A stretch of DNA of 56,645 nt from a virus (lineage: Duplodnaviria > Caudoviricetes): the IMG/VR virus record IMGVR_UViG_3300024302_000397, positions 1 through 56,645 of that record, one strand, 5' to 3'. The translations under genes and the position numbers were made by a program. Positions 21,250 through 49,300 of the stretch are shown here, one piece after another. Each line of letters begins with the position of its first letter. The first letter of the stretch is position 1. The notes below the pieces were generated by a model. That model worked only from the letters and a program-made list of their open reading frames with translations. It was not told the DNA's origin and did no database searches.

Positions 21250-21534
21250 ATGAAACCTTTAGCAGGAACATTAGTAACACCAGATAACACCCCTATTGCT
21301 AATGCATCTGTTAGGCTTATAGCTACTAATAACACAACAGATGGTGCTTTAAAAGGCACTATGTTTGTATTTAGTACAACGTCAACTGGCACTTATGCAG
21401 TAAACGTATTACCGGGTAGTTACAAAATAGAGTTTAAGAACCCAGGTAAGGCTAAATATATTACATTAGGTCATGTCACGATTGCTGGCACAGACACCAC
21501 TAGTCAACCTCTAGAGGATATTGGGATTAGCTAA
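21250..21534 (+). CDS. Tail-fibre N-terminal-like (transthyretin/Ig-like) domain protein
   Basis: GTL..PDNTPI..ASV...T...GTY...V.PGSY.I; paralogous to the N-terminus of the next ORF. Confidence 0.65.
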   Translation: MKPLAGTLVTPDNTPIANASVRLIATNNTTDGALKGTMFVFSTTSTGTYAVNVLPGSYKIEFKNPGKAKYITLGHVTIAGTDTTSQPLEDIGIS

Positions 21535-24500
21535 TGGCTATAATAGTTCAAGGTACATTAAGATTTCCGGATAACACACCTATTGTAGGAGCTTCGATTA
21601 AATTCGTAGCCAGTAAATTCATACAAAGTGGTGTTCCTATTGGTGCTTCCCTAATAATTACTACTAATAGTAGTGGAGGGTACAACCAAAGTATTCTAGA
21701 GGGTAGTTATCATATATTCATTAAGCAGTCAGGCCAAGAGCTATACACACATTTAATAGATGCGCATTTAGCAGATGGTATTGGTAATGTTGCTATTGGT
21801 GACCCTATTACACTTGAAGAGATTATAGGTACTGGCCCAGGGGATACTCCTGTCTACGAAGGTTGTAGTGTTATACCTGCTCCAACTAACTTTACTGTTT
21901 CTGGAGGCTTTACCACTATAATTTTAAGTTGGTCAATACCTGCCTACATATGTCATGCCGTTACTGAAATATGGGTGAGCACAACAGATGAATTCACTAA
22001 TAAAGCCTTACTAACTACTACAGAAGCTTCTGTCTATAGTCATGCTATCGGACATGATGCTACAGAGTATTACTGGATTAGATTTAGAAATCTAAATGGG
22101 GACTATGGTAATTGGTATAGTGCGACTAGTGTTACTGGGCAGACTTCACAAAACCCCGGTGAGGTATTAGCTGATCTACAACAAGACGTATATAACTCTA
22201 CGTTATTTAATGCTCTACGTACAAATATTAACTCTAGTTTTTATCAAGCATTAGCTCCTACAACTAAACTCAATGGTGATAGCTTAGCAAGTGGTGATAC
22301 CTGGATTGACTCAGATGATAACCAAAGACATGTATGGGATACTTCACAGGTACCTCCTGCATGGTTAGCTGTTACTGATCAAGCTACGGTATCCGCTATT
22401 GCTTCATTAGTAGGTAAACAAGAAACTTCCGATGGTGTAGTTAAAGGTTTTTTCCAGACAACAGAGCCTCTATACGCAGAATCAGCATTCGGTGATATTT
22501 GGATAGACACCTCACAACCAAAGCCACTAACCTTTACAGCTATACACAGATTCCAGGATGCGGATTCAACAAATTCAGGAAGCCTATCTTGGATGACTAC
22601 AGACTCCCAGAATAATGCACTAGGTTTAACCTATATTACAGCGTATAACGCTGATGCAGAAATCACAAACATCTTAACTGGTGAGACAGATTTAGATAAT
22701 GCTGTGATTGGTGGCACTAATTTAGTTAGTTACATCTCTGGTGTTGTGGGTACTGGTACTGACAACATGGTGCGCATTTACTCAGGGTCAGATAGAACAA
22801 CACAAACTGGGATGGATACAGGTGACCTGTATAACGAAACAGATTCAAACGGTATTCTAACTACATACCAATACTCAGGCACAGGTTGGGTAGAAGTACA
22901 AGGTGCCTCTAACATGGCACAGTTGGGTGACCTCACAGATGGTAAACGTTCCATATACACTACAGAGGGTGTACCCGTAGACTCAGATGCACAAGGTGAT
23001 TTAGTCATTTCTATCAATGACTTATGGATACCTCCTTCAGATTTAACTACTACTGACGGGACTTACGCAGAAGGTCAGATTTATAGATGTACAAGTGTGT
23101 CTCCTATAACCTTCGTCAAGGCAACTAAGTATCATGACATAATTGATAATCTCAATGCCTCACTAACTAATGCAATAGATGCTAAATTGCAAACATACGC
23201 TGCAGATACAGCACCATATACTGATGTTGTGAATATCGCAACAGATGCTACTGTGTATGCCACCCATCAAGCACGTGTTAATGATTTATGGTTATGCACA
23301 AGTACTGCAGGTATTTATGTATCAGGTAACTACTACGAGTACACACGCACAGCGAATGGCACTAACACAAGTAACTATGACTATACTTGGGAAGTTAAAG
23401 CAGACATCACAGCTAGTATGTCTTTGTTGGTAGATAACAAACGTACAATTTATGGAGATACCACACCACCAGCAGGCACAACACATTCGTTACTAGATAA
23501 TGACTTATGGATTCCCCCAGTAGATATTGTAGGACCTCCTGAGTACTTTCAAGGCGAGATGTATGTGCATGACTCCACAGCAACCCCAGTTTGGAGAGTA
23601 GCTTCAAGATACTCTGGAGACATTGCATCAGCTAATTCCCAATTTGCTAATTATGTAACTACAAGTGCATATGGCACTGACCAAGTAGCAATACAAAACC
23701 AGTTAGATGGTAATATCACTACATGGTTTAAAGATGAAGCACCTACATTAAGTAACGTACCAGCTTCAGATTGGCAGACGATAGACACAGCTAATAATGA
23801 TGATAATGAGAAGATAAAGCATATAGGTGATTTATACTATGACAAAGTCACTGGGTATGCTTACAGATTTGCACATGAAGACAACACAGTAGATGGCGTA
23901 GATAACCCTATCTATAGTTGGATTATAATTACAGACACAGATGTTACACTAGCTCTATATAACGCAAGTGTGGCGCAAGATACTGCAGATGAAAAACGTA
24001 GGATATTTGTAGCAAAACCTAACACGGTCACCTCAGCCTATGAACCGGGTGATATGTGGGTAATGGATAATGATGCTGACCATGCTACTTTCAGTGCAGG
24101 TGATTTACTCCGTTGTGAAACTGGCCGCGCTAAGAACTTAGCTTCTAATACTGTTGATGCGTATGATGACGATGATTGGATAGCAGCAAGTAGGTATACA
24201 GATGACACTGCCGTAGATGGTGTTGTAGATGGAACTACCTCGTTAATAAACGCTAAGTTGGGTGATATACTCATTACAGAGTATGTTAATACCACTGTAG
24301 ACACAGCTACTGATAATATGGTCAATGTGTACAGTGGTAGTGACAGAAGTACTCAAACAGGTATGTCAGGTGGTGACTTATTCATTGAGACAGACAGTGC
24401 TGATGTAACGACTACTTATAGATACTCAGAAGTAACACCAGCTACAACACCTATAACATACGTCTGGGTAGAGATAGAAGGTACTACTAACGTAGCTAAA

Positions 24501-26540
24501 CTAGCTGACTTAACTGATAGTAAACGCGCTATATTCAGTACTCCTGGGATTCCTACAGATACTGATGCAGGAACTTATGACACGGTCCATATAAATGACC
24601 TGTGGATACCTCCAACAACGTTTACAGATACAACGGTTACCCCAAATATTACCTATGCAGGTGGTGAAATATACAGATGTACTATTGTAACCCCAGCAAT
24701 TGTATTTACTAAAGCCACGAAATACCATGACTTGATTGAAACGTTAAATGAAAACTTAACAGCTACAATCGATGCCAAGATACAGACTTATGCACAAGCT
24801 ACAGTGCCATACGTTAATGTATTGAATGTAGTAACTAATAGTGCCTCATATCTCACACAAGAGAAGCTAGTAGGTGACTTATGGTTATGCTCTACTACAG
24901 CATCCCCGTATACTGCTGGAAAGTATTATGAATACACCAAGACAGCTAATGGAACAACAGCTGCTAACTCAGACTACACATGGACAGTAACTGTGGACAT
25001 AACAGCAGACTTAGCTGTATTAGTTGAGAATAAACGTACTATTTATGGTGGAAGTAGCACCCCTTCAGGAACTACATCACACCCTCTAGAAGTTAATGAC
25101 TTATGGATACCTAGTACAACGGTTGACACCTACCTACAGGGTGAAATGTACACTTGGACTGGTGCTATTTGGGATACAGCATCAAGATACTCTGCAGATA
25201 TCTTAGAGCTAAGCAACCGCACTATTAACGTATTCTACCAACCTGGTAATAAGGATAGTAACGGTGTATATACTACGCCTCCTGGGTCAGCTATATGGGA
25301 CATTACAGGTACACCTGCCACGTGTACTGTGTTAGGAGTAATAGATACAACTATAACTACAGAAGATTTATGTGAAGCGCCTATACAACCTGAAATAAAT
25401 GATATGTGGGCTGTGTTAGATGATGGAGATACTCTATATAAGTACGATGGTACAAGCTGGGTATTATTATCAATAGCCACCTTGGCTAATGTGGATACAC
25501 AGATTGTTGAACAAGTAGGTTACTGTGAACGAACTGTGACCATCACAGGTGCTACAAACAGAACAGGGGAGTATACCACTAAGACTTTGTGTGAGGCAGC
25601 GGCTGTTACAGGTGAAACATTTGCTTGGAGAGACACAGGAGCATTCGCAGCGTTAACAGATGTAATCAGTTCAACAGTAGATAGTAACACTAGTACCATA
25701 CAGATACAAGCCACCTCTATTAACGGTCTAGAGTCAGAGTACTCTGTCAAACTAGATAATAATGGCAATGTAAGTGGTTTTGGGTTATCAAGTGGAGCGC
25801 CAGGTTGTCTAGTTGATGGGGTGTTAGATGCTAGTATTACACAAGCAGCTTGTACAGGCACAGGTAAGGAGTGGGTAACAGACTCCAGTACTTTCCTAGT
25901 AGCAGCAGATACCTTTGCAGTAACAGGTACTGATGAGACCCCTGTCATACCTTTTGTAATTAGAACTGGAGATGTTAACGGTACTTGTTATGTAGATGGT
26001 GTGGTAAACGCAGCAGCAACTCAAGCAGCTTGTGAAGCTATCGCTGGGGGTTCTTGGGCAGCACCAGATACTAGTGTTGTGGGAATACAAGGTAGTCTAG
26101 TATTAGACGGTACGATGAGCGCCACTACAATAAAATCAGGAACTATTACAGGTGACCTCATAGCAGGTACTACTATTACAGGCACTAATATTGATGGTGG
26201 TACTATCACAGGAAATAAAATAAGCGCTACAACTAAAATTGTTGCAGGTACAGGTAATAATGTTGGTGTCCTGTCAGGTGTTCCTGCTTCTTGTTCTGAT
26301 GGCGTTTCAACAACTGAAGCCGCTTGTATTGCAGCGGGTGCTGTTTGGGATGATTATCGCATTTATGCTGGTCATGCTACTCCTGCTTCAGCTCCTTTTA
26401 GAGTTAAGCAAGATGGTACAGTAATTATTGAGAAGAGTACAAGCACTGGAAAGATGGTAATAGAAGGTGATGTGATTAAGGTCTACACTACCGCTGGAGG
26501 AGTGGATACTCTAAGAGTTAAGTTAGGTAACCTAGCATGA
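21534..26540 (+). CDS. Large tail fibre / host-specificity protein (lambda J C-terminal / DUF1983-like region)
   Basis: Tail N-terminal domain, FN3-like segment (PAPTNFTVSGG...YYWIRF), long internal duplication, EYSVKLDNNGNVSGFGL...FLVAADTFAV...PFVI, terminal LRVKLGNL. Confidence 0.8.
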   Translation: MAIIVQGTLRFPDNTPIVGASIKFVASKFIQSGVPIGASLIITTNSSGGYNQSILEGSYHIFIKQSGQELYTHLIDAHLADGIGNVAIGDPITLEEIIGTGPGDTPVYEGCSVIPAPTNFTVSGGFTTIILSWSIPAYICHAVTEIWVSTTDEFTNKALLTTTEASVYSHAIGHDATEYYWIRFRNLNGDYGNWYSATSVTGQTSQNPGEVLADLQQDVYNSTLFNALRTNINSSFYQALAPTTKLNGDSLASGDTWIDSDDNQRHVWDTSQVPPAWLAVTDQATVSAIASLVGKQETSDGVVKGFFQTTEPLYAESAFGDIWIDTSQPKPLTFTAIHRFQDADSTNSGSLSWMTTDSQNNALGLTYITAYNADAEITNILTGETDLDNAVIGGTNLVSYISGVVGTGTDNMVRIYSGSDRTTQTGMDTGDLYNETDSNGILTTYQYSGTGWVEVQGASNMAQLGDLTDGKRSIYTTEGVPVDSDAQGDLVISINDLWIPPSDLTTTDGTYAEGQIYRCTSVSPITFVKATKYHDIIDNLNASLTNAIDAKLQTYAADTAPYTDVVNIATDATVYATHQARVNDLWLCTSTAGIYVSGNYYEYTRTANGTNTSNYDYTWEVKADITASMSLLVDNKRTIYGDTTPPAGTTHSLLDNDLWIPPVDIVGPPEYFQGEMYVHDSTATPVWRVASRYSGDIASANSQFANYVTTSAYGTDQVAIQNQLDGNITTWFKDEAPTLSNVPASDWQTIDTANNDDNEKIKHIGDLYYDKVTGYAYRFAHEDNTVDGVDNPIYSWIIITDTDVTLALYNASVAQDTADEKRRIFVAKPNTVTSAYEPGDMWVMDNDADHATFSAGDLLRCETGRAKNLASNTVDAYDDDDWIAASRYTDDTAVDGVVDGTTSLINAKLGDILITEYVNTTVDTATDNMVNVYSGSDRSTQTGMSGGDLFIETDSADVTTTYRYSEVTPATTPITYVWVEIEGTTNVAKLADLTDSKRAIFSTPGIPTDTDAGTYDTVHINDLWIPPTTFTDTTVTPNITYAGGEIYRCTIVTPAIVFTKATKYHDLIETLNENLTATIDAKIQTYAQATVPYVNVLNVVTNSASYLTQEKLVGDLWLCSTTASPYTAGKYYEYTKTANGTTAANSDYTWTVTVDITADLAVLVENKRTIYGGSSTPSGTTSHPLEVNDLWIPSTTVDTYLQGEMYTWTGAIWDTASRYSADILELSNRTINVFYQPGNKDSNGVYTTPPGSAIWDITGTPATCTVLGVIDTTITTEDLCEAPIQPEINDMWAVLDDGDTLYKYDGTSWVLLSIATLANVDTQIVEQVGYCERTVTITGATNRTGEYTTKTLCEAAAVTGETFAWRDTGAFAALTDVISSTVDSNTSTIQIQATSINGLESEYSVKLDNNGNVSGFGLSSGAPGCLVDGVLDASITQAACTGTGKEWVTDSSTFLVAADTFAVTGTDETPVIPFVIRTGDVNGTCYVDGVVNAAATQAACEAIAGGSWAAPDTSVVGIQGSLVLDGTMSATTIKSGTITGDLIAGTTITGTNIDGGTITGNKISATTKIVAGTGNNVGVLSGVPASCSDGVSTTEAACIAAGAVWDDYRIYAGHATPASAPFRVKQDGTVIIEKSTSTGKMVIEGDVIKVYTTAGGVDTLRVKLGNLA

Positions 26541-27001
26541 GTTATGGTTTAGAAATCTTTAAGAGTGGTGATGACTCCTGTGTAGGCCCGACATCTAATG
26601 TGTGTGTAAAAGACGGTGTGCACTTAACTGCGCACACTAATGCAGTATCTTGTATTAACACTGGTGCAGGTGATTGGGTAGCCCCATTCAACACAGCATC
26701 TTGTGCGTTTGTGGGGGGCACTTGGTCAAGCCCTTTAGTTTACTCGTCTAATGATGTTACATGGAATCAGGTAGATAGTTTTGTAGCTAGCGCTGGGGTC
26801 ACGGTTAGTAAAAACTATTCTTCATTAACTGCTGAAGGGGTAACTGAGTTTATAACAGTACAATTTATGGTACATACCTTGCAACCTGACACTGCAGCAA
26901 AGACACACACAGTAGCAGTGTCGGGTACTAGTGTTACAGCTACTCCCGCAGGAACACAACACACGTATAGTGACACTTATGTGGTGGTGTTAGGAAGATG
27001 A
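26537..27001 (+). CDS. Tail-tip accessory protein with Cys-pair inserts
   Basis: MSYGLEIF start typical of genes following J-like proteins; ATGA coupling. Confidence 0.65.
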   Translation: MSYGLEIFKSGDDSCVGPTSNVCVKDGVHLTAHTNAVSCINTGAGDWVAPFNTASCAFVGGTWSSPLVYSSNDVTWNQVDSFVASAGVTVSKNYSSLTAEGVTEFITVQFMVHTLQPDTAAKTHTVAVSGTSVTATPAGTQHTYSDTYVVVLGR

Positions 27002-27918
27002 GTTACGGTTTCAGTGCAAAAAATAATAATAACCAAGTACTTATAAGCAGTGAGATGCAGAACTACCATTTGCATTCTAAACTCACAACTATAGACAGTG
27101 TACTGGGATATCATGATTCATATGGCGGTATGTGGAATTACCGCTTCATAGTAACCATCGGGTCAGACAATCCTCCTATGGTATTTATAGAGCCTCAGTG
27201 TGAACAGATACAGGCTATGCTCGGTATGGATGTAATACAGGATTTGGGTGGTGGCAACAAAAAGTGGGCGATTGATGTAGCTGTTGCAGGAACAACTTCA
27301 AGTTCTGCTGCGCACCCACACTTACATATTTTTACTAAACCGGGTGCTATCACCAACCCTTCTGGGCAGGACTGGGGTTTGCAGGTATTTAATAGCAATA
27401 ATGATGTGGCGTTTGATAGTAGGAAAGCCCCCTTAGTAATTTTAGGGGGTGGTACAATAACCCCCCCGTCCACTATTATCACAAGTTCACAGAACTTAAA
27501 TCCAAATCCTAACCACTGGGTTGAGAAAAGTTTAAATGGTTTATCTTCTTCAGATATTATGTTCTGCGCACCTTCACTGGCCCAGGCAGAACGTGAATAC
27601 ACAACAACACAACACTCGGATTCTTGTACAGGTTTAGACGTATGTGGCGCATGTCTTGGTTGGGAAGAAGTGTGGGACCGATCAGATACTTGGTGGGCGT
27701 TTTATCGAAACGGCTTTCAAGTTAAAGATAATAAATTTAAATCAGGGTGGTTAACCTTTAATGTCGGACATCTCTTCCATGAATCAGAATCGGATAGTTT
27801 CATAGGTATTAGGTTCGATGGTGGTAGTGGTAGTGGTGGACAACAGGCTATTAACAACGGGCAAATAAATATGAACAACAACGCGTATTTGTTCTCTAAA
27901 CCGAGCCTATACTCATGA
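26998..27918 (+). CDS. Tail-tip accessory / receptor-binding protein
   Basis: MSYGF...N.NNQVLI and internal WGLQVFNSN..VAFDS repeat motifs; coupled to the previous stop. Confidence 0.65.
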   Translation: MSYGFSAKNNNNQVLISSEMQNYHLHSKLTTIDSVLGYHDSYGGMWNYRFIVTIGSDNPPMVFIEPQCEQIQAMLGMDVIQDLGGGNKKWAIDVAVAGTTSSSAAHPHLHIFTKPGAITNPSGQDWGLQVFNSNNDVAFDSRKAPLVILGGGTITPPSTIITSSQNLNPNPNHWVEKSLNGLSSSDIMFCAPSLAQAEREYTTTQHSDSCTGLDVCGACLGWEEVWDRSDTWWAFYRNGFQVKDNKFKSGWLTFNVGHLFHESESDSFIGIRFDGGSGSGGQQAINNGQINMNNNAYLFSKPSLYS

Positions 27919-28100
27919 TTGATTTAATACAGACTACCTTTACAATTAAAGATAATATTGCTACAGTAAGTGTAGTTAATATTGTGCAATTAGACGCTAC
28001 CAATAAATTTAAAACTACTAATACACATTTAGTAGAAATACCTGAAGGGGTGAAGCCAACACGTGAGTACATACTAGGATACCTATATGCCAACAAATAG
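27915..28100 (+). CDS. Hypothetical protein
   Basis: ATGA coupling to the upstream gene; overlaps the next gene. Confidence 0.55.
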   Translation: MIDLIQTTFTIKDNIATVSVVNIVQLDATNKFKTTNTHLVEIPEGVKPTREYILGYLYANK

Positions 28101-28671
28101 AGAACTAATTGAACGGATGATGCAAGATTATGAGAGTAAAACTTTACTTTACCCCCCATTCACATCGTCTAAACTAAGACGAGGACATAAGGGCTTCCTA
28201 GGTGCCTTATTTTGTGCTGTAGGGCTGTTTACTAATCATCACAGGATAAGACGTAGTTCTGCGGATAAGTTTTTTAGAGAAGGTATGAAAGCGTACATTG
28301 ATGGGTACAGGCGCGTGTTACGGGGTGAGAATAAGCCTTGGGTAGTCAGTAGTAGTTTTGACTCTGAATATGTGGAAAACATTACAGGCGGTGTTTTTAA
28401 AATAGCCCGTATTGCAGAATCGGCCACATTGCCAGTATTAGTAGTAGTAGACTTCACGCCAGACAGCAAAGTGCTCAGTTATTACACTGAAGAGACTGAG
28501 TCTATCTTTAGGTTTGACAGTTTATTTGGCTTGTACGACCCAGCTGAGGATATGTTGTATTTTTTTGTTGAACCTTATAATTTTGAAATCCCCGCCAATG
28601 ACCCCACTATTAATAAGATATCACTATATGAGCTAATTCTTACTGACAAAGGTAAAAGTTATGCAGAGTAA
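28087..28671 (+). CDS. Hypothetical protein in the ACP/KS cassette
   Basis: AGGA RBS; overlaps both neighbours; no motif recognised. Confidence 0.6.
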   Translation: MPTNRELIERMMQDYESKTLLYPPFTSSKLRRGHKGFLGALFCAVGLFTNHHRIRRSSADKFFREGMKAYIDGYRRVLRGENKPWVVSSSFDSEYVENITGGVFKIARIAESATLPVLVVVDFTPDSKVLSYYTEETESIFRFDSLFGLYDPAEDMLYFFVEPYNFEIPANDPTINKISLYELILTDKGKSYAE

Positions 28672-28909
28672 AGACCCTCACGGTGAATTCAGCTTTGCTG
28701 GTGTATCGATATACCCACTAACCTTTACCGATTTTTGGGTAAACCCCACAAATGGGGAAACTAAAAGGTCTGAAGAGATTAACTGGATAAATATTAATTG
28801 TAGACCTATTGACTTACAAAGATTTGTTATAATTGATGGGGAATTACAGGATTATCGTGATGTAGTAAACATTAGACAAGTAAACGCAATACCGTTATTT
28901 CACACCTAG
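28661..28909 (+). CDS. Hypothetical protein in the ACP/KS cassette
   Basis: AAGG RBS; overlaps upstream gene. Confidence 0.55.
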   Translation: MQSKDPHGEFSFAGVSIYPLTFTDFWVNPTNGETKRSEEINWININCRPIDLQRFVIIDGELQDYRDVVNIRQVNAIPLFHT

Positions 28910-28919
28910 GGAGGGTACG

Positions 28920-29183
28920 ATGACATTAGAGGAAACACTAAACATATTAAATAACGCAGTCACAGCATCTGTAATGGATGCCACTGAGTATACTCTGTGT
29001 ACCAAAAGCACAGATACATTAAAAGACATCGGGTTGGATAGTTTAGACTGGAGTATTGTATTAATTTACATAGAAGATGAAGTATTATTGAGCGAAGAAG
29101 TCATTACTGAATTAGGTGAAATAATAAATACTGGAGGGACTGTTCAAGAAATGATGGAGTTCTTCAATAGTCATGGATTATAG
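28920..29183 (+). CDS. Acyl carrier protein
   Basis: 87 aa, very acidic; phosphopantetheine-site motif LKDIGLDSLD followed by IEDE and a terminal TVQEM helix; AGGAGG RBS. Confidence 0.85.
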   Translation: MTLEETLNILNNAVTASVMDATEYTLCTKSTDTLKDIGLDSLDWSIVLIYIEDEVLLSEEVITELGEIINTGGTVQEMMEFFNSHGL

Positions 29184-29626
29184 TGTTCTTATTAGTTAAG
29201 ACACTACATGTATTTTCAATAGCGATGTTCCTAGGTAATATGTTAGTTACAAATACCTGGAAAGGTAGGAGCAAGCATTGCACTGTAGCAGTACGCACTT
29301 ACACCAATAAACTAACTAGACGTACAGATTCTATCTTCGTAGAGTTCTATGGTCTATTGTCTCTGGCTTCTGGACTACTACTAGTGTATTTGCACCCGGT
29401 GTATACCTACACAACTACATTCATTATGTGGGCGCTTATACTTTGGACGTTATCCCTAGTGTTCTGGGGGGTATCAATTCCGTATCTGCGTAAACAGCAC
29501 ATTGATTTAGTTATGAACAAAGGCGAGAAGTACAACTATTATGATCGTAGATGGTGGTGGTGGGGACTAGCTGCAACTATCGCGGATGTAGCTATTTTGC
29601 CTTTAATGATATGGAAACCCTTATGA
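29183..29626 (+). CDS. Four-TM integral membrane protein (DUF2269-like)
   Basis: KTLHV...MFLG, D..F, SGLLL, RRWWWWG...LMIWKP pattern; GTG start overlaps ACP stop. Confidence 0.7.
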   Translation: MFLLVKTLHVFSIAMFLGNMLVTNTWKGRSKHCTVAVRTYTNKLTRRTDSIFVEFYGLLSLASGLLLVYLHPVYTYTTTFIMWALILWTLSLVFWGVSIPYLRKQHIDLVMNKGEKYNYYDRRWWWWGLAATIADVAILPLMIWKPL

Positions 29627-30690
29627 ATATTTCGTTAATAGACTCAGTGTCTACACAAGAACTGACAGCCTTACATTCCGTTAGCTACCCGTCTAACGCC
29701 CATGCTGTTGTTACGACAGCACACCCTAAGATTCAATCAGGATACGCAATTATTGCGCACCTATTAATTGATCAACTTGTAGCCAGGAATAAAGAGGTAC
29801 TACAATCAGAAGCTTCTACAGGCAAATCGGGGTTAATATTAGCAAGTGGAAATACCTACTGGTCAGGTTATGATTTAAATCGGAAGCGCCCTGCTAATTT
29901 TCCAGTACTTAAACCTCTAGCCTTGGCAACAACTAATATATACGCAGGCAGAGTTGCTCAACATATTGGTTATACAGATTATGTCTCTACGGATAGCACA
30001 TCATGTGTATGCGCATATAACGCCACTTTTTTAGCTAAAGCGTTATTAGATTCTAATACGTTAGATAGGGTGTTAATAATCGCTGTAGAGGATGCCACAA
30101 GCGGTGATACTATTGAGTTCTTCAGTAAGTATGGTGGTAATATCAGTTTAGCTGATGAAGAAGCTGGAAAGTTACCTAGTGCGTTTGATGGCACTAACAC
30201 AGGCTTTAGGGTGGGCAATGGTGCAGGGATGTTCTTGTTAGATAACAAAGACAATGGTATTGCACAAATTGACCAAGTATCTATGGCTGCTGAGAAGTGG
30301 AGTAGCCCTATAGGGCAAGACCCTGCAGGGACAGGTTATCTTAAAGCGCTATCACGTATTGATACAAAAGGTGTGCGTATCATTAAAACACATGGTACAG
30401 GTACCCCAAGTAATAATATTGCTGAGAAGGTAGCTATTGAGAGTACCTTTGACGATTTCATAGCTACATCTTATAAGCCCCTGATAGGTCATACTATGGG
30501 CGCTAACGGGGCTATCGAACTAGACTTATTAGTCAAGGACTTGCATAGGGGTGTGCTCACAGGTATACACAACCGTACAGTAAAAGACACACGATTCATC
30601 TCTGAAGATACTAAGATAAAAGATAAAACAGCTATATGTTTAGGTAGTAGTATGGGGAATGGTTACGCAGCGTTAAAAGTATCTATTTAA
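29623..30690 (+). CDS. Beta-ketoacyl-ACP synthase (FabB/FabF-like ketosynthase), divergent
   Basis: Catalytic Cys in DSTSCVC, HGTGTPSN, SYKPLIGHTMGANG, SAFD...GF.VGNGAG, terminal SMGNGYA. Start placed at the ATGA overlap 29623 (355 aa); the track start is 29551. Confidence 0.9.
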   Translation: MNISLIDSVSTQELTALHSVSYPSNAHAVVTTAHPKIQSGYAIIAHLLIDQLVARNKEVLQSEASTGKSGLILASGNTYWSGYDLNRKRPANFPVLKPLALATTNIYAGRVAQHIGYTDYVSTDSTSCVCAYNATFLAKALLDSNTLDRVLIIAVEDATSGDTIEFFSKYGGNISLADEEAGKLPSAFDGTNTGFRVGNGAGMFLLDNKDNGIAQIDQVSMAAEKWSSPIGQDPAGTGYLKALSRIDTKGVRIIKTHGTGTPSNNIAEKVAIESTFDDFIATSYKPLIGHTMGANGAIELDLLVKDLHRGVLTGIHNRTVKDTRFISEDTKIKDKTAICLGSSMGNGYAALKVSI

Positions 30691-30716
30691 CATATAGGTA
30701 AGCAGGTTAAAAATTA

Positions 30717-30725
30717 TGATAAAAT
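30717..30725 (+). promoter_or_regulatory. Extended -10 late promoter candidate upstream of portal
   Basis: TGATAAAAT in the intergenic gap. Confidence 0.4.
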
Positions 30726-30770
30726 CACGAAAAAGCCTTTGTACCCCCAGAATATGATAGGATACGCACT

Positions 30771-32942
30771 ATGAAGAATAATATATCAGATTTAGATATT
30801 GATGCGACTGAACTAGATACTTTAGTTGATTGGGAAAACCCACCTAAAATTGAAGACCTGAAGCAAGACTTAACAGAAGCACAGTCTGCTCATTCAGATC
30901 ATATCATCGATGTCGAGAACTGGTTAGACGCTCTAAACGGCAAACAGAAGCTTAGCACTAAACCTGGTCGTTCTAAGATTGTTCCTAAACTTATTCGTAA
31001 GCAAGCTGAGTGGCGTTACGCTGCATTAAGTGAACCTTTCCTATCTACCGATGACTTGTTCAATACAGCACCGGCTACCTTCGAAGATAAGAAGGCTGCT
31101 GAGCAGAATGGTCAAGTACTTAACTACCAAATTAACTGCAAGATTGATAAGACTAAGTTTATCGATGAATACGTACGTACATGTGTGGATGAAGGTACAT
31201 CTATTATTAAGTTAGGTTGGGACTACAAAGAGGAGACTGTTGAAGTTGAAGTACCTGACTTTGATTTCCAACCTACACAAGAAGCAAACCAAATACACCA
31301 ACAGTTACATGCAATGATGCAAGAAGACCCTGAGAGATTTCAACAAGAAATCCCACCAGAGATGCAACAAGCACATGAAATGTCTATGCAAGGTGGTACA
31401 GCAGTTATGCCTGTACAGGTCGGGTCTCATACTGAGGAACAAGTTAAGGTTATTAAGAACCAGCCTACTATTGAAGTGTGTAACTACGCAAACGTAATAG
31501 TTGACCCTACATGTGAAGGTGACATAGATACCGCTGAGTTTATAATCTATAGCTTTGAGACATCAATGTCTCAGCTAAAGAAAGATGGTAGATATAAGAA
31601 CCTAGACGCAGTCAGCTTAGATAGTGGTAGTGTGCTGTCAACTCCAGATCACTCTGTTGATGATGACTCTAGCTTTACTTTCAAGGACAAACCACGTAAG
31701 AAGATTGTAGGATATGAATACTGGGGATTCTGGGATATCAACGGTACAGGTGAAGTAGAACCTTTCGTAGCTACCTGGGTAGGTGACACTCTGATTAGAT
31801 TAGAAGAGAATCCGTTCCCTGACAAGAAGTTACCATTTGTAATCGTACAGTACTTACCTAAGCGTAAGGCCGTGTATGGTGAACCTGATGGGTTACTGAT
31901 TGAAGACAACCAGAAGATTATCGGAGCTGTAACTAGAGGTATGATTGATGTTATCGGTCGTAGTGCTAACGGACAGATGGGTACACGTAAGGATGCATTA
32001 GACGTTTCTAACTACCGTAAGTTTGAACGTGGTGAAGACTTTAAGTTCAACTCTAACGTAGACCCTAGACAAGCTTTCCATATGGAGACTTACCCAGAGA
32101 TTCCTGGTAGTGCACTAAATATGCTTACGTTACAAAATAACGAAGCTGAGTCGCTTACAGGAGTTAAAGCATTTAGTTCAGGTATCACAGGACAAGCATT
32201 AGGTACAACTGCTACAGGTATTAGGTCAGCACTAGATGCTACATCTAAACGTGAGTTAGGTATCCTTAGACGTCTAGCTAATGGTATTAACCAGATGGGG
32301 CGTAAGATTATATCTATGAACGCTGAGTTCTTAGGTGATGAAGAAATCATCAGAGTAACTAATGAAGAGTTTGTAGCTATCAACCGTGAAGACTTAGGTG
32401 GTATGTATGACATTAAACTAAACATATCTACAGCAGAAGCTGACACTGAGAAAGCTCAGGAGTTATCATTCATGCTTCAGACTATGGGTAACAACATGCC
32501 TCCAGAGATGTCACAGATGGTACTAGCAGATATTGCTAAGTTACGTAAAATGCCTGAGTTGTCTAAGCGTATTCAAGAATACAAGCCACAACCTGACCCT
32601 ATGGCTCAACAGATGAAGGAACTTGAAATGCAGCTGTTACAAGCACAGATTGCTAATGAGCAAGCTAAGGCACAAGAGAACCAGGTTGATGTAGGTCTGA
32701 AGCAAGCTAAGACACAGACAGAACAAGCTAAAGCTAGAGGACTACATAGTACCTCTGACTTGAATGACCTAGACTTTGTTAATAAAGAATCAGGTGTACC
32801 TGATGCAAACAAAGAGGAGCAGATGAAGTTAGCTCATGGTCAAGAGATGCAAAAGAAAGAGTTTGATAGATTATCAAATTTAGACAGTAAGGTGATAGAT
32901 GGTATGATGCAGGGAGCTAATACTAACTATCCGGGACTTTAA
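30771..32942 (+). CDS. Portal protein (N4 gp59-like)
   Basis: PKLIRKQAEWRYAALSEPFL, NPFPDKKLPFV, EAESLTGVKAF motifs; size and position typical of N4-like portals. Confidence 0.92.
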   Translation: MKNNISDLDIDATELDTLVDWENPPKIEDLKQDLTEAQSAHSDHIIDVENWLDALNGKQKLSTKPGRSKIVPKLIRKQAEWRYAALSEPFLSTDDLFNTAPATFEDKKAAEQNGQVLNYQINCKIDKTKFIDEYVRTCVDEGTSIIKLGWDYKEETVEVEVPDFDFQPTQEANQIHQQLHAMMQEDPERFQQEIPPEMQQAHEMSMQGGTAVMPVQVGSHTEEQVKVIKNQPTIEVCNYANVIVDPTCEGDIDTAEFIIYSFETSMSQLKKDGRYKNLDAVSLDSGSVLSTPDHSVDDDSSFTFKDKPRKKIVGYEYWGFWDINGTGEVEPFVATWVGDTLIRLEENPFPDKKLPFVIVQYLPKRKAVYGEPDGLLIEDNQKIIGAVTRGMIDVIGRSANGQMGTRKDALDVSNYRKFERGEDFKFNSNVDPRQAFHMETYPEIPGSALNMLTLQNNEAESLTGVKAFSSGITGQALGTTATGIRSALDATSKRELGILRRLANGINQMGRKIISMNAEFLGDEEIIRVTNEEFVAINREDLGGMYDIKLNISTAEADTEKAQELSFMLQTMGNNMPPEMSQMVLADIAKLRKMPELSKRIQEYKPQPDPMAQQMKELEMQLLQAQIANEQAKAQENQVDVGLKQAKTQTEQAKARGLHSTSDLNDLDFVNKESGVPDANKEEQMKLAHGQEMQKKEFDRLSNLDSKVIDGMMQGANTNYPGL

Positions 32943-36358: not shown

Positions 36359-37468
36359 ATGGCATCAATAAGTACTTCAGATTTAACACAGGCAAGTGGT
36401 GTAACCACCAGTACTGACGGAAAATACACTGTTACAGGTACTGGAGTATTTGATGACCTTATGGAGGCGGTGAATGCTCACCTAGATGCTCAGTTTAATT
36501 TAGGTAGACTAACAGGTGCAGATTATGCAACTGTCTACCTAGGGGCAGTACAGAGCTCTATGCAGCAATCAGTTGCTTTTATCTTAGGTAAACAGCAAGC
36601 TGATAAACAAGCTGACCTGATAGATAAACAAATCCTGACAGAGGTGAAGAAGACTTTAGATGTTACGTCTACAACCACTGTCAGAGATGCCCAATCTGCT
36701 AAAGATTTACTCGTTAAAACGGCACAGGTTACCTCGATGACTAAGGAAGACGTAGTCAAGACAAACCAAGCCCTAGATGTACTATCACAGACATCAGTTA
36801 GGAACGCCCAATCTGCTAAAGATGCAGTGCTGAAGGATGCTCAGACGCTTGATATTCATGACCAAGCTGTACTACGTACACAAGCTAGTGATGCAGATTT
36901 ATCTATCAAACGTCAACAGATTATCAATGAAGCGTTTACTAATGGTATGGAAGTGAATGAGTACATCTGGGAGATTGAGTATAAGCTTAATCTAGGTGAG
37001 ACTTACACCTTCGTAACTATTGAGAACTTAACGGATAATGATGTAGTGGCACTTATGACTGCTGACCCACATGACCCTAGATACCCTGAAGTTAATGCCG
37101 TAACACTAAGTATGTCTAAAGTTATACAACATGCTGGTAAGTCTACTGCTGCAACTATCATTGCTAAAACGCAAGAAGAGGTTGACTTACTTAAACAGAA
37201 GCGTATTACTGAACATGCGCAGACGTTGACAGAGACTATCGGTTCTACTATTGTTACAAGCAGTGTTATGGGTAAGCAGGCTGAGTTATTTACTCAGCAA
37301 GCTGTTGGTTTTGAGAATGATGCTAAGAACGCCTTCAATAAGAACATGGCTGATATTCTCAAGATGCAAATCAACACACAAGGTGACTTTAGCTCAAGTA
37401 AGTTCATCACTGTAGAGCATTTACTAGATCTCTATCCGGATGATGATAATGTAGTTGCAGCTACATAA
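36359..37468 (+). CDS. Structural protein (N4 gp54-like)
   Basis: GTGVFDDLM.AV.AHL..QF..GR.TGADYA.VY motif; synteny. Confidence 0.75.
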   Translation: MASISTSDLTQASGVTTSTDGKYTVTGTGVFDDLMEAVNAHLDAQFNLGRLTGADYATVYLGAVQSSMQQSVAFILGKQQADKQADLIDKQILTEVKKTLDVTSTTTVRDAQSAKDLLVKTAQVTSMTKEDVVKTNQALDVLSQTSVRNAQSAKDAVLKDAQTLDIHDQAVLRTQASDADLSIKRQQIINEAFTNGMEVNEYIWEIEYKLNLGETYTFVTIENLTDNDVVALMTADPHDPRYPEVNAVTLSMSKVIQHAGKSTAATIIAKTQEEVDLLKQKRITEHAQTLTETIGSTIVTSSVMGKQAELFTQQAVGFENDAKNAFNKNMADILKMQINTQGDFSSSKFITVEHLLDLYPDDDNVVAAT

Positions 37469-45400: not shown

Positions 45401-46309
45401 AAGGTAGTAGCACTCTCTAAGAAAGTATCAGAAGCTACTATAAATAGGGAAGCTGATGTAGAGGTAACTGCAGCTAAATCACAACTAACTCTTAATGAGA
45501 GGTTGCTAGGTAAAGTAGATACATTTAATAAAAAATCTCCACAAGAGACTGTAGACCCTATTAAGAAACCAGAAGAAGTAGTAAAGGTACAGGCTGAAGC
45601 CAAGCCCACTACTCCTGAAGCGCCTAAACAGACGCAGTCTGTGGAGGGCGCTGCTAAATACACAAAAGCAACTAATCAAATAACTAAATTAGTTAAGAGA
45701 GCGGAGAAGCTTGATACCCAAGTATCTGACTTAAACAGTAAAACAGAAGAGAATAGTTTATTCCCTGGCACTCTAGAGATACCCGTAGCTGAAGCCAAAG
45801 CAAAGATAAATACTCAACGTACTAAAATACGTGATAACTTCAATAGGATTGCTACTAGATTTGATTTAGATATAAAAGACGCTGACATCAAGACTGACCA
45901 GCAAGAAGAGATGCTGTATTCATTATTAGATGGAGCAGTAACACTAGGCAGCAAGGAAGTAGAGGATAAGATTAGAGCTATTAGCTCAGACTATGCAAAT
46001 CATAAGACTGAAGTTGTTGTTGAAGAAGCGGTTGATGTTGAGGCGCTACAGAGATTAGATGAGTTACAGAATAAGCCTAATACTGAACAAGCTAAACCTA
46101 AAGCTAAAGAAGAAGTCAAGGTAGAAAAAACTCCTGAGAAGACTCCACAAGAAACCATTAGTCCTGAGATAAGTACTGTACAATTACTTGAATCCGGAGC
46201 GGCCTATGAACAGGGAGGCGTAGCTAAAGTATACGCTGTAGGCCATTACAGTAAAGCTCAGTGGGTCACAATTGCAAAAAAACTAGGAGTATTACCAGAT
46301 GTCTGCTAA
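42413..46309 (+). CDS. Large internal virion protein, probable N-terminal part of a split virion RNAP, with an SNase-like N-terminal domain
   Basis: Occupies the vRNAP 5' position; Gly/Ala hydrophobic hairpin region, coiled coil, FAKHMQGK segment; only Cys is the last residue; HDADT...DTAE...DKYNR motifs. Confidence 0.65.
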   Translation: MGNYSVSSDIFSDYDDLYFKDLKKKKLDAVLERKNAAIQSLKGVHDADTFVYEDPITGNTSSTRAGAPNSTLDTAETFKGFAKPYAEGRNGVRDTHARALASDLGMHPSQITDDMLNQRALESKAFAQDLLMQDQPNPEDPQTQVTVHGEDKYNRPITESVNPYTGININRALNTPEHNLNFYSKYNKIPDINYAEKGDDKIKPFTVIGNEDGTYDLTVRGGLKYPNIPNPEIERKEFIPHIIDPNTGMVPQLLGEYRVSDFVGKALSGNLESTLGKKGENETVGGRYDNFSRKGLNEQELKDWIEAFNPFVEYEGYTGYIPKEDFKDTTSTGAEFLAKAGWSVADEIQHYNTKLQTFLESDEGKKASMKTRAQEADKLWKNSLVVFSDPEENFNRAQAQRMDTLDYIENMYSERKEESFGKLAESAALMIEITAGLPGQAVATWSTHDRIVEEFEKHAGRAPTSLEDGQIWGLATVSVAGEKFALKTVLGKNPFVNKALADFTANFPAFGRALGTTFGLGAAGLISEGSSGVISDTAETIGAHLAEGYVFPTSTQARESFWMEAMPGSSIGTISGAAKSTTTSSDTAALNGLIADLGRGAPTVELTIDEETKLNKKIDALDDKLRSSSISDAHRVKLMSKRDELTKQRLEGKPNKDALSEEGRKDLESSIQTLQNKINDKAASPKGLESAIKKDTKAVNKLNKNIERLEALEQTDEVVQLIQEARQEVELLETNIKDSKASLGILNVDDTAKIKPVEGDSLELLKTIPGKLENSDELSIEELQSLIAQYERAATDVMQRFVKGETELKEAQQESFRRVNEYMELLEKRVDLTEAKKTIEKSSEKDQYVYSLDHTDEGSAQTLNEILAQGTLTPIETEVVQAKQEVIEAKQGLSNNAKNIEDVNEDITGKGSKDFISFNQHLDNVVSGTNALAAQSGLEQFAKHMQGKAETLRAAYDKFLQDGNIAEVEYRGVTYEINNSTETLLEYVEREAAYGQKVVALSKKVSEATINREADVEVTAAKSQLTLNERLLGKVDTFNKKSPQETVDPIKKPEEVVKVQAEAKPTTPEAPKQTQSVEGAAKYTKATNQITKLVKRAEKLDTQVSDLNSKTEENSLFPGTLEIPVAEAKAKINTQRTKIRDNFNRIATRFDLDIKDADIKTDQQEEMLYSLLDGAVTLGSKEVEDKIRAISSDYANHKTEVVVEEAVDVEALQRLDELQNKPNTEQAKPKAKEEVKVEKTPEKTPQETISPEISTVQLLESGAAYEQGGVAKVYAVGHYSKAQWVTIAKKLGVLPDVC

Positions 46310-49300
46310 ATGTACTAAGGAACTGATTGTAGAGAGTATTACTAATGCAATAAACACACAACCACAGACAGAAACTGCAAAGGTATTTAAGTCTACTGTC
46401 AATAACTTCGTAGGGTACATAGCAGAGCTTGGTATTAATAACTCTCAAGATTTAAATGTGCATATACCTAAAGCTGACGTGTTTGCCCCTTACCTACATA
46501 AGATAGGGGAAGTGCTAAATGAAGGCAATAAATTATTCTTAGTTAAAAATAGAGACACAAAGTCTTCTACTTTCCTAGAGCCATCTACCTACAAGAATTC
46601 TGATGAGTTAGTAAGTATTTTTATGGAAGCTGGGTTAACCCCAGAGCTATCAACTCAACTAGTAAAACTATTCAAGGCATTTACAACTAAAGTAAATCAA
46701 GAATTGAAAAGCAGTAATACTGTCTATGAAAATGACGTGTTACCCCTACTATATGGAGCTAACAAAATAGAAGGACGTGATACTACGTATCACTTACCTG
46801 CGCCTGTATTGTTCAGTGCCTCTACTTCATTACTAAGATGGTTTGCTACAGATGGTGCGCGTACATTAAACACTTTCACAGACACACAAATACAACTAAT
46901 AGTTGGAGCTGAACGTACTTCTGATATCTTAGATGAGACATTAACTGCTTTCCGTAATTTAGATCACGGTGGAATGTTGAGGGGTGAGGCTGCAAGGTCT
47001 TTAGGCTCATTGATATTTGACTCACTAAATATTAAAAGCAACTTAGCTACATCATCAACAATATTAGATGACATTCTGGCACATCAATTAGGAGCTTTAG
47101 CTCTAGAGATTGGCGTTAAGATGGGACTTATTAAGTCTGCTGAAGTAGTCTATAAGGTCAATCAAAATGGGAAGTTAGTCACTAAGAAGTTTGCACATTA
47201 TTACATTACACAAAAAACTATTGATGTTAATAATATAGATATAAAAAAGATTACAGACCATTCAAAACACTTAGACAGTTTCTTTGGGGTTAACCAGTCA
47301 TTTAATGCACCGTCTGCTACCCCTTTACCTAACGTTTCAAAGAATGTTAGAGGCTCGTTAGGCTCAGTTAGCCCACAAGCACACCAAGTAATCAATAAAT
47401 TAGTTAATACTGAGTGGACAGTCAATAGTGCTTATCATTTATATATGATAGGCAGTGACACTGCTAACGCACCTCTACAAGCTAAAGCAGTAAAGCTTAG
47501 AAAAGTATTAGCTGGTGTAACCTTTTTAAATCCTAGTGATGCTCTTAACGTGCATGTTGATTTAGAAGAAGGTATTAAAGCTAAAGATAGACAACTATTA
47601 GACCAAATTAAAGTAATTAAGAAGTATTCAGATAATAATCTAATAAATAGCTTCTACTTACAGTGGAAATTTATGGCTCAGCATCGTATGATGATTGAGG
47701 GTGAGCTAGACCCTATGTCTGCTAAGAATGTAGCACGCTTTTTACTTAAGCCTGCAAAATCTAAGAGTATTATTGTAGACCCTGCCACTAAGGACTCTAA
47801 AGCTGTTATCTCCTTTAAGGTTGCTGTAGCTCAGCATTTTGATTTAAGTGTTGATAAAACAGACGTACAAGGTTCTCTAGAGCTATTTGACAGTGTATTC
47901 AGTGATATGGAGAATGAGCAGTCTGCTTTAAGTAGAGCAGTTCAATCTGTTATTCAACTCAGTATTAAGCCTAATGAAGTTACGGAAGAGAACTACTTAG
48001 ATGCTATGCTAGAGTTACACACTAAGTACCCTGGAGCTAACACTGCGTTAATTATGGCAGTGAATGCTTTAGCACAATACCAATCAGCTCTAGAAGAAGA
48101 TACTACGTTTACCACAGACATCATCGCTGAAGCTGATGCTGTTACTAGTGGTTTTGGAATTGGTTTAATGCTGTTCCCAAGTAACAACATGGACGACATG
48201 ATGAGGGAGCTCAATCGTGTAGGTATGATTTTTGAGGGACAAGTACCTTATTCTGAACAAGTAAAGAATGCGAATGGTGCAACTCCTGATGGGTATCTAA
48301 ATTTTGCTAATGCTTTATTTGATAAGTTTGAGAATTTACCAAGCTACTTAGATACTAATGGTGAACATGTAGACCCTAAGGTGGCTGAGAGTCGATTTAA
48401 GGCGTTTAATACTATATTTGCTCCACTAGTTACTAATAGACGTAATGCTGGCAAGCCACCATTTATGGTACTAAACTATGAAGGTGGCGCTGCTAAGGTA
48501 GCTAAAGAATTATCTGTTAGCTTAGTGGATTCTTTATTTGAATACATCACAGAAGCTCAAGGAAGATATACGAATGGTAGCCCAGAAGTAAAAGCAGAGA
48601 TATACAAAGAGCTTGCTACTATGTTTAAATCTATGAGAGTGCTTACGAAGAGTAAAGCAGGTAAAGAATATCTACCTGGAGGACTTACATCAGGGGTATT
48701 AAAAACTCTATTAGCTACGAATGAATTACATAGATATAGCTTTAATGAGCCTCTGTATAGAGGGTCTCCTATTAAATACAGAGACTATTTAATCTCTAAA
48801 CTAGGACAGGCGTTAACTCCTGCCATTAAAGTAGCTGCTGCTGAGACGATAGTGAACTCTGAGATAAAGTCTGACTTTATTAAAGCAGGAGAGCTTCAAT
48901 ACTTTATTTTCAAAGTCAAGTATAACAATCTAGTTAAAGAAGTAGCTGGACGCTCAGAAGGTAAGTTATTCCCATCACAGCGTAAAGAATTAGCTAGGGA
49001 GTTAATTGATTTCTATCCTAGAATTGCACTTAAACACCAAGACGGTACAGAGTCATTTATTGATTTAGTTAAGTCGACTCAGATACAGCACTCTACTAAA
49101 TTTGAGCTAAAATTAAACAGTGGAAATGTTAGTACTAGAATGCTGACGTACTCGTTTGCTCCTCCAGGAGTTTCTACAGTAGTACGCTCTATTCAAGGTA
49201 CAGATGCTGTGAAATTGCAAGATTCAATTAGTATTCCTAATGTTGAGAATACAGAAATTCCTTTGTTACCTCTGCATGATGCTGTTATGGAAGTGATAGG

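Follow-up and report, generated by a model that had tools for sequence, protein, structure and literature searches.

Dedicated pairs of an acyl carrier protein (ACP) and a ketosynthase (KS) are known from bacteria. The rhizobial NodF and NodE are a dedicated ACP and KS that feed the N-acyltransferase NodA and borrow the other steps from the housekeeping synthase, and AcpXL with FabF1XL/FabF2XL forms a similar dedicated pair for lipid A. Acyl-ACP is also the substrate of GNAT-like acyltransferases such as the RTX toxin activators HlyC/ApxC and the mycobactin enzyme MbtK/Rv1347c. Here we describe an ACP gene and a KS gene in a stretch of viral DNA of 56,645 nucleotides, the IMG/VR record IMGVR_UViG_3300024302_000397, which we refer to as the window. 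Single ACP or fab genes of phages are usually filed as auxiliary metabolic genes (AMGs). The accessible part of one genome paper reports gp30 of Alteromonas phage R22Y as an ACP, calls it an AMG and places the phage in the Schitoviridae by phylogeny (PMC11705849), and that of another reports fabG-acpP-fabF trios in Rhodobacteraceae prophages (PMC8224337). No study of a phage ACP-KS module was found in the full-text literature searched, subscription journals lying outside it. New here is a virus-rich KS clade that is always accompanied by its own ACP family, occurs in at least 573 IMG/VR stretches and is mostly found between tail and ejection genes beside a protein with GNAT fold.

The KS of the window matched both ketoacyl-synthase Pfam domains, the N-terminal one with 28.8 bits and the C-terminal one with 41.7 bits against a gathering score of 20.8, and phrog_35856 at 1e-40. 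Its closest solved relatives are FabF structures, the best being 1j3n (E 4e-14 with the single sequence; the family profile reached E 2e-29). As evidenced by the alignment to FabF 1j3n, the Cys-His-His triad that the preliminary description of this DNA had noted is intact and is joined by a lysine: C128 (TSC), H257 (KTHGTGT), and K285 and H290 (YKPLIGHT) align to the catalytic residues of FabF and are invariant in 19 family sequences. The protein had also rightly been called short and divergent at its N-terminus, where it has about 35 residues less than FabF. As relatives open with MNISL or METL, equivalent to positions 29623 or 29611 and to a length of 355–359 amino acids (aa), translation starts at one of these two positions and not at 29551; the ATG at 29623 overlaps the stop codon of the preceding gene by 4 nt, as ATGA. 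The C-terminal loop of FabF, which holds what we take to be the gate phenylalanine, reads GFGG in five FabF-like rows of a MAFFT alignment and GMGN in all 12 family rows. None of the 14 matching NCBIfam models reached its cut-off, with 68.9 vs 493.75 bits for the fabF model TIGR03150 and 32.5 vs 630 bits for the FabB model NF005935. Judged from its sequence, the protein is a beta-ketoacyl synthase but not a FabF. It is also under constraint, with proportions of non-synonymous and synonymous differences (pN and pS) of 0.117 vs 0.753 in a comparison with the relative in locus L112; synonymous sites are saturated, and only pN and pS, not dN/dS, can be quoted.

The ACP gene, preceded by the ribosome-binding site GGAGGG 5 nt ahead of its ATG, encodes an acidic protein of 87 aa with an isoelectric point of 4.05 (family range 4.05–4.74 in 30 sequences). 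Searched as a single sequence against the PDB it gave weak matches with a best E of 0.31, and 35 of the 37 rows at E<=10 were carrier proteins. The profile of its family was more telling: all 60 listed rows were carrier proteins, with a best E of 6.6e-6, and the motif GlDSLD was aligned to GADSLD of the ACPs from spinach (E 6.6e-6) and Plasmodium (2e-5), with the serine at the phosphopantetheine site. DSLD is invariant in the 30 family sequences. Half of these (15/30), the window member not among them, matched PF00550 (PP-binding) at E<=1, the best at 4e-5. A language-model feature search with the ACP met PP-binding clusters in 27 of 30 matches (score 0.91), which we take as a lead only, and a tblastn search of phage records gave no match. 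The ACP-like identity with a GLDSL site, as originally proposed, is thus upheld at the level of the family by its invariant DSLD and by a profile that meets only carrier proteins in the listed PDB rows.

Relatives were missed by a single-protein scan of viral contigs and found by an alignment-based one. Neither did blastn of the gene cassette match any phage record, and among 50,697 deposited phage records a full-length KS homologue (at least 80% of the query) was present in one, an uncultured virus. A profile scan of IMG/VR yielded at least 598 motif-bearing stretches, at least 573 of which encode a KS relative. We called and clustered the open reading frames (ORFs) of 82 loci, namely the best 80 of these at least 573 viral loci, one locus of a deposited phage and the window. 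Clade-specific scans contributed no more than one viral locus, L110, and two metagenomic ones, L111 and L112, and the clade of the window stays small. In 81 of the 82 loci the KS gene is immediately preceded, on its own strand, by an ACP-like ORF; only L003, truncated at the 5' end, shows none. The conserved unit is ACP plus KS only, and because pN of the KS is far below pS and the two genes are adjacent this consistently, the module is more than a chance assembly.

Three kinds of gene order were distinguished. Type A (64/82 loci) runs from a virion structural protein (phrog_3287) through a small ORF, ACP and KS to a protein of about 150 aa and then large proteins, and Type B (14/82) from an SNF2 helicase through ACP and KS to small early-type ORFs. 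Type C comprises the window, L002 and L003 and has the order 194-aa ORF, 82-aa ORF, ACP, DUF2269 protein, KS and portal, with only the KS-portal part visible in L003, which is cut upstream. The one remaining locus ends just after the KS. Altogether, the pair is located inside a block of virion genes in 67 of the 82 loci.

This distribution bears directly on the preliminary description, in which six genes, from ORF 27915 to the KS, were seen as one cassette coupled to the tail-tip genes. Pairing of ACP and KS in phages was indeed nearly constant; the expected J-like and MSYG neighbours were not, as Type A, Type B and locus L095 all differ, and such variable context had been named beforehand as speaking against the proposal. 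The three small ORFs (27915, 28087 and 28661) and the DUF2269 gene are not part of the conserved module, because they are confined to close relatives of the window. L083, the closest non-identical relative of the window KS (53% identity), does show a similar order, with the C-terminus of a fibre protein, an MSYG and an MSYG-like protein, ORFs of 69, 202 and 88 aa, ACP and KS, and without DUF2269; directly after its KS, at L083:11072-11632, follows a gene for an OmpA-like outer-membrane beta-barrel (Pfam OMP_b-brl, 2e-13), and there is no portal there. L095 (KS 31%, portal 62%) has ACP, KS, a 116-aa ORF and the portal, thus the same pre-portal slot, with no homologue of the window fibre genes detected upstream. 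Moreover, this slot is variable, since in Vibrio phage 1.025.O it holds an M15 peptidase and a PhoH-like gene on the opposite strand.

The model put forward with the original cassette, in which cysteines of ORF 26998 would accept acyl groups as a tail-tip protein is modified at the membrane, has no specific support and is in our view very improbable, the least probable of the readings considered here. It draws on the colinear and overlapping arrangement of fibre, MSYG, small ORFs, ACP and KS in the window and on the recurrence of this order in L083; against it, ACP and KS occur without these fibre genes in L095, in the 64 Type A and 14 Type B loci and in cellular gene clusters. The product of ORF 26998 has its counterpart in L083 in the C-terminal half of a protein of 664 aa (L083:6584-8578, 33% identity), in which a cluster of three to four cysteines is kept in place, but not in register. 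The cluster is thus only partly conserved and nothing ties it to acylation; tblastn of ORF 26998 against the 50,697 phage records gave no match. A candidate S-acyltransferase was not found either, as ORF 28087 is papain-like at best and shows no conserved Cys/His pair.

To place the KS family, a quick maximum-likelihood tree (IQ-TREE, LG+G4) was calculated for 44 rows, 34 of them family members and 10 FabF or other KS from three genomes that also carry a family member; Type A had been thinned by k-mer similarity from 49 to 12 rows and Type B from 14 to 6. All 34 family rows fell into one clade (SH-aLRT 100) on a stem of 1.86, apart from the FabF of the three co-carrying genomes. The window KS does not, on this limited outgroup, nest within host FabF, and the clade is virus-rich and distinct from FabF. 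Within it, the window grouped with its near relatives and L083 (support 99), this group joined a cellular clade from Campylobacterota and L095 weakly (support 82), and Type B was nested within Type A. With FabF/FabB and AcpP the pair shares both ketoacyl-synthase domains, the aligned Cys/His/His/Lys and a small acidic carrier with a DSL serine; it differs in the long separate stem, the shorter N-terminus, the GMGN loop and the lack of any other fab gene in the record. No match to ACPS, Acyl_transf_1, adh_short, FabA or Acetyltransf_1 was obtained anywhere in the 56.6-kb record, which is 76% complete according to CheckV, so that the earlier remark on missing phosphopantetheinyl transferase, malonyl transferase, reductase and dehydratase genes holds for the window. 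Because ACP and KS form a clade of their own, travel together and lack these partners in the window, they are a dedicated pair and not a piece of a host fab operon. The initial interpretation as a dedicated minimal pair therefore stands, and its coupling to the tail tip is not supported. The prophage trios of Rhodobacteraceae, to judge from the accessible text, follow the host order fabG-acpP-fabF (PMC8224337), whereas the module of the window combines a KS from the virus-rich clade with its own ACP family.

R22Y offers a different comparison, as another ACP-carrying phage and one placed in the Schitoviridae by its authors, the window portal being closest to Schitoviridae-type phages. Its ACP-like ORF, L108:23774-24070 (GLDSLG), matches the family profile at E 5e-4 and stands in the structural block, next after a gene that is a homologue of window 36359-37468, and no KS homologue was found in its 68-kb genome, which sets it apart from the window. 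Phage ACPs can therefore exist without a KS, and this lends something to the idea that ACP-like protein and KS yield no product and serve as decoys that bind and divert ACP-dependent proteins of the host, or as structural components. We consider it very improbable, as the Cys/His/Lys/His set invariant in 19 KS and the DSLD with its serine invariant in 30 ACPs argue for catalysis.

Downstream of the pair, the Type A loci share a further element. The protein of about 150 aa after the KS was modelled with a predicted local distance difference test (pLDDT) score of 94.1 from a 23-row alignment and has a GNAT fold, with Z 11.3 and a root-mean-square deviation of 2.7 Å over 125 residues to 8iyo and with 442 of 999 chains at Z>=8. 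The matches are all tied at Z 10–11 and are mostly acetyl-CoA enzymes; those found with Foldseek include the acyltransferase domain of NcdE and Rv1347c, both with a TM-score of 0.59 and both acyltransferases, not acetyltransferases. RNase E, ranked first by Foldseek, has a TM-score of 0.36 and was discarded as noise. HlyC/ApxC-type chains were not among the 50 rows listed by either structure search, and cluster 4 of L015 had no Pfam match at E<=0.1. The locus thus resembles the acyl-ACP-dependent GNAT-like systems in having a GNAT-fold protein, with Rv1347c among its matches, beside a dedicated ACP in 64 of 82 loci, and differs from them in that the window lacks this gene and HlyC-type chains were not among the matches listed.

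The GNAT-fold gene always follows the KS in Type A loci (numbered among L001 and L004–L081), for example at L015:10995-11459, and is followed in turn by genes for large ejection-like proteins, the first here at L015:11461-13509. One of these large proteins matches the PHROG family 'DNA ejection protein' at 8e-11, and in MW202545 a gene with an SLT domain is found further downstream of the module. The product of the gene after GNAT starts with Met followed by Gly, Ser, Ala or Pro in 54 of the 55 loci with enough sequence, and a small residue would therefore be exposed after removal of Met; note that these N-termini come from homologous genes and count as one observation, not 54. The N-terminus of the large protein then continues into an acidic, valine-rich repeat (xVxD). 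Animal viruses have N-myristoylated penetration proteins, and the trio of ACP, KS and GNAT might be their counterpart in bacterial viruses, a lipidation machine that N-acylates the downstream ejection (membrane-penetration) protein, with ACP-DUF2269-KS of the window as a variant that would deliver the same kind of donor at the membrane. We regard this specific proposal as unlikely.

Members of the ACP-KS family are also found in cells. Among bacterial contigs and contigs of metagenome-assembled genomes, 14 of 32 stretches were KS relatives, and chromosomes of Campylobacterota carry the same family (L084:8818-12915, L085:1-21053, L088 and L094), one of them on a contig of 470 kb. The order there is ferritin-like protein, ACP, KS, a metallo-beta-lactamase-fold (MBL) hydrolase or flavin mononucleotide (FMN) reductases, a short-chain dehydrogenase/reductase (SDR) and a 4HBT thioesterase, with extra KS and ACP genes, a methyltransferase, an AMP-ligase, an acyltransferase and an ABC transporter nearby. 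By their gene content, these clusters look like a short build-and-release pathway, not a core fab operon. L092:2964-4445, on a Burkholderiales contig, is a longest ORF of 493 aa that has the ACP-like segment as its C-terminal part, which may be a fusion or an artefact of ORF calling in GC-rich DNA. Such clusters, with their thioesterase, SDR, MBL hydrolase, methyltransferase, AMP-ligase and transporter, are an argument for a small-molecule function of the phage pair, in which a beta-keto or short polyketide-like chain would be released or converted to yield a diffusible compound, for instance a signal, a methyl ketone or an N-acyl amine, and the GNAT protein, where present, would be an N-acyl synthase. 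3-Oxoacyl-ACP, a product of KS enzymes, is a donor for GNAT-like N-acyl synthases. Thioesterase, synthase and exporter were, however, not found among the window ORFs scanned; the 50 matches listed for the GNAT model include no structure of an acyl-homoserine lactone synthase or N-acyl-amino-acid synthase, which by itself decides nothing. Overall, a diffusible product seems quite unlikely to us.

The reading that we prefer, held tentatively and with a little less than even confidence, is that ACP and KS are a dedicated pair in the manner of NodF/NodE, which would draw on AcpS, FabD and the reductases of the host to supply an acylation step with a private acyl-ACP donor. The module itself probably makes a phage-specific acyl donor. 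In favour of this reading are the nearly constant pairing, the invariant catalytic residues, the separation of the KS from FabF, the lack of other pathway genes in the record, the GNAT-fold neighbour in most relatives, the Campylobacterota clusters with their SDR and thioesterase, and the envelope-related neighbours in the lineage of the window. What it shares with NodF/NodE is that a dedicated ACP and its KS lie side by side while the remainder of the synthase is absent, and that in most relatives (64/82) an N-acyltransferase-type gene follows. The likeness in sequence is that of a single weak match, NodF at E 0.0035 among the PDB matches of the ACP profile. It differs in that the transferase of the relatives has a GNAT fold and is not of the NodA/LpxXL type, that the window has none, and that the setting is viral.

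Such a pathway would begin with host AcpS attaching phosphopantetheine to Ser41 of the phage ACP and host FabD loading it with malonate. The KS would then condense an acyl primer with malonyl-phage-ACP to beta-ketoacyl-phage-ACP, Cys128 forming the acyl-enzyme and His257, His290 and Lys285 serving the decarboxylation, and host FabG, FabZ and FabI may process the product further. The resulting acyl-ACP pool, kept apart from host AcpP, would be a donor for specific acylation and not for bulk lipid. In most relatives, the role of transferase would fall to the GNAT-fold protein, whose gene lies after the KS and right before those of the ejection-like proteins. No such gene is present in the window, where the product may be put to use at the inner membrane, with an envelope lipid or a membrane or virion protein as its target. 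An acyl-transfer purpose is plausible because GNAT-fold and ejection-like proteins follow the pair in 64 of 82 loci, and use at the inner membrane is suggested by the DUF2269 gene translationally coupled between ACP and KS. As to the acceptor, which like the product we infer, the Type A gene order points to the ejection-like proteins, and the DUF2269 protein of the window together with the outer-membrane gene of L083 points loosely to the envelope.

Several observations weigh against a private acyl donor. The ACP of the window taken alone fails in Pfam, with no family at E<=1 and PF00550 unmatched in the record even at E<=10. Neither Acetyltransf_1 nor the GNAT profile of the relatives found a match in the window, and an acyltransferase or acceptor is not identifiable there. 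Near the fourth strand and third helix, the consensus of the GNAT-fold proteins reads, by eye, FRALNADTAxNF without an obvious G-x-G/A; Q/RxxGxG/A is the pyrophosphate-binding motif of GNAT proteins. The position before the portal says little on function, because a related phage uses this slot for cargo, and the conclusions on context rest on the best 80 of at least 573 viral loci. Finally, 14 of the 82 loci carry ACP and KS alone in a replication-gene context, so that the pair works without a phage transferase, which would fit a plain metabolic role equally well.

Such a role is the substance of the strongest rival, in which ACP and KS are AMGs that boost bulk fatty-acid and phospholipid synthesis of the host, or change chain length, with no dedicated acceptor. 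We find it somewhat doubtful, and it stays a strong rival because of these 14 loci, where the pair stands among early or replication genes. The KS moreover keeps the full catalytic set of an elongating KS, and in L088 and L094 no more than a few kb separate the cellular member from fabF. PhoH is a common phage auxiliary gene, and it is PhoH that holds the same slot in Vibrio phage 1.025.O. Phage ACPs and fabF are labelled AMGs in genome papers, as far as their accessible parts go (PMC11705849, PMC8224337). A booster of bulk synthesis would, however, be expected to resemble and use host FabF and AcpP, and the KS family stands apart as a clade on a long branch, has an ACP of its own and is fixed beside a GNAT-fold gene inside the virion block in 64 of the 82 loci. 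The rate-limiting steps of fatty-acid synthesis are those of acetyl-CoA carboxylase (ACC), FabH and FabI, none of which would be relieved by KS and ACP alone. Should a virion or envelope target turn out to receive its acyl group from this pair, phages would own a lipidation chemistry with a bearing on how the ejection proteins of podoviruses cross membranes; if it were only a metabolic booster, it would still be a widespread and unstudied takeover of host lipid synthesis.

The source record is a linear contig that includes N4-like RNA polymerase matches, a large terminase subunit, an SU10-type adaptor and portal and a major head protein. Its portal shares 52–56% identity with those of N4-like phages, among them Vibrio phage 1.025.O, which is assigned to the Schitoviridae. 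The phage is a marine, N4-like virus. The genes around the module are collected in Table 1; all eight ORFs of the preliminary description, from 26537 to the KS at 29551/29623-30690, were recovered on the + strand. They are part of an unbroken run of + strand ORFs from 21534 to 32942 in which junctions are overlaps of 1–14 nt or gaps of 10 nt, and those for ACP, DUF2269 protein and KS are translationally coupled.

Table 1. Genes in and around the ACP-KS module of the window.
Feature	Coordinates	Strand	Evidence
Tail fibre protein, 1668 aa	21534..26540	+	PHROG tail and tail-fibre families, best 2.9e-35
MSYG-start protein, 154 aa	26537..27001	+	37% identity to a 104-aa ORF of L083, same place after the fibre gene
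MSYG-start protein, 306 aa	26998..27918	+	N-terminal 150 aa match phrog_4062 (8e-14) and phrog_3370
Lineage-specific ORF, 61 aa	27915..28100	+	No match in Pfam and PHROG
ORF, 194 aa	28087..28671	+	Helical N-terminal part, beta-sheet C-terminal part
Lineage-specific ORF, 82 aa	28661..28909	+	No family match above threshold (Pfam, PHROG)
ACP-like gene, 87 aa	28920..29183	+	GLDSLD motif; candidate phosphopantetheine Ser41
DUF2269 integral membrane protein, 147 aa, GTG start	29183..29626	+	Pfam PF10027
FabF-like KS, 355 aa; alternative starts 29611, 29551	29623..30690	+	PF00109 and PF02801 above cut-off
Portal protein, first gene of the head block	30771..32942	+	Pfam SU10_portal 3.1e-153; phrog_1216

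The protein encoded between ACP and KS matched PF10027 at E 1.5e-11 (45.1 bits vs a cut-off of 28), with residues 4–146 on profile positions 2–150 of 150, and a Kyte-Doolittle scan gave four hydrophobic segments, which confirms its description as a DUF2269-like membrane protein with four transmembrane segments. Its gene overlaps the ACP stop codon by 1 nt and the KS start by 4 nt. Only three near homologues were found in a set of 5.8 billion proteins; a DUF2269 gene between ACP and KS is also present in L002 and is absent from L083, L095 and every Type A and Type B locus. A predicted complex of KS and DUF2269 protein scored 0.00 in two runs without controls, which speaks neither for nor against binding. 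A holin function was considered, since a related phage keeps its lysis genes in the pre-portal slot; no endolysin was present in the window ORFs scanned, the record being 76% complete.

The three ORFs upstream of the ACP are equally confined. ORF 27915 had no BLAST match in 81 loci and did not align to its positional counterpart in L083, an ORF of 69 aa, and ORF 28661 has a homologue in L002 and a weak match to the 88-aa ORF of L083 (E 4e-7). ORF 28087 found two matches among 1.84 billion representative proteins, the second being a protein of 2583 aa that was matched in eight stretches and carries BiPBP_C-like repeats and a type IX secretion signal; its match to the 202-aa ORF of L083 is weak and colinear (E 4e-7). 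An AlphaFold2 model of ORF 28087, calculated with an alignment of four rows, reached a pLDDT of 76.2. Its matches are mostly papain-like, C39 and NlpC/P60 folds, the best at Z 7.8 and none at Z>=8. A papain-like fold is not claimed, as these values stay below the level of fold identity, the 4-row alignment has no invariant Cys or His, and there is no His in residues 100–194. Viral predicted structures gave nothing at E<=0.001, the feature search no usable match, and hhalign with the GNAT profile of the relatives a probability of 0.1. By their place after the fibre genes, which is kept in L083, these three ORFs and the DUF2269 gene are more likely to be associated with the fibre than to encode enzymes of the pathway, and this applies to ORF 28087 in particular.

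The cassette is not marked off by promoter or terminator signals, and a separate transcription unit can therefore not be defined: promoter-like sites did not exceed those in shuffled sequences (31 vs 35.4 +/- 6.0), and the sole terminator-like site on the + strand inside the cassette, at 28204-28225 within ORF 28087, has three GC pairs. DNA nearly identical to the window occurs in seawater metagenome runs, 14 rows of which were flagged as possible sources. It is also contained in six seawater metatranscriptome libraries of 2025, with 51–82% of sampled words, whose study codes may represent one campaign. Four of the six held contigs at least 99% alike over parts of ACP, DUF2269 and KS, such as one of 739 nt over 29079-29817; these contigs are evidence of presence in such libraries, not proof of transcription, and bins without coverage were not interpreted.

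Two further regions of the window deserve mention. An ORF of 2707 aa (46299-54422) closes the structural block, at what we take to be the position of the virion RNA polymerase in N4-like phages. Upstream of the terminase, at 8373-9195, a RepL-like winged-helix ORF (Pfam 9.5e-8) and an ORF with a T5orf172 domain (4e-13) form a pair that may be an insertion of the homing-endonuclease type.

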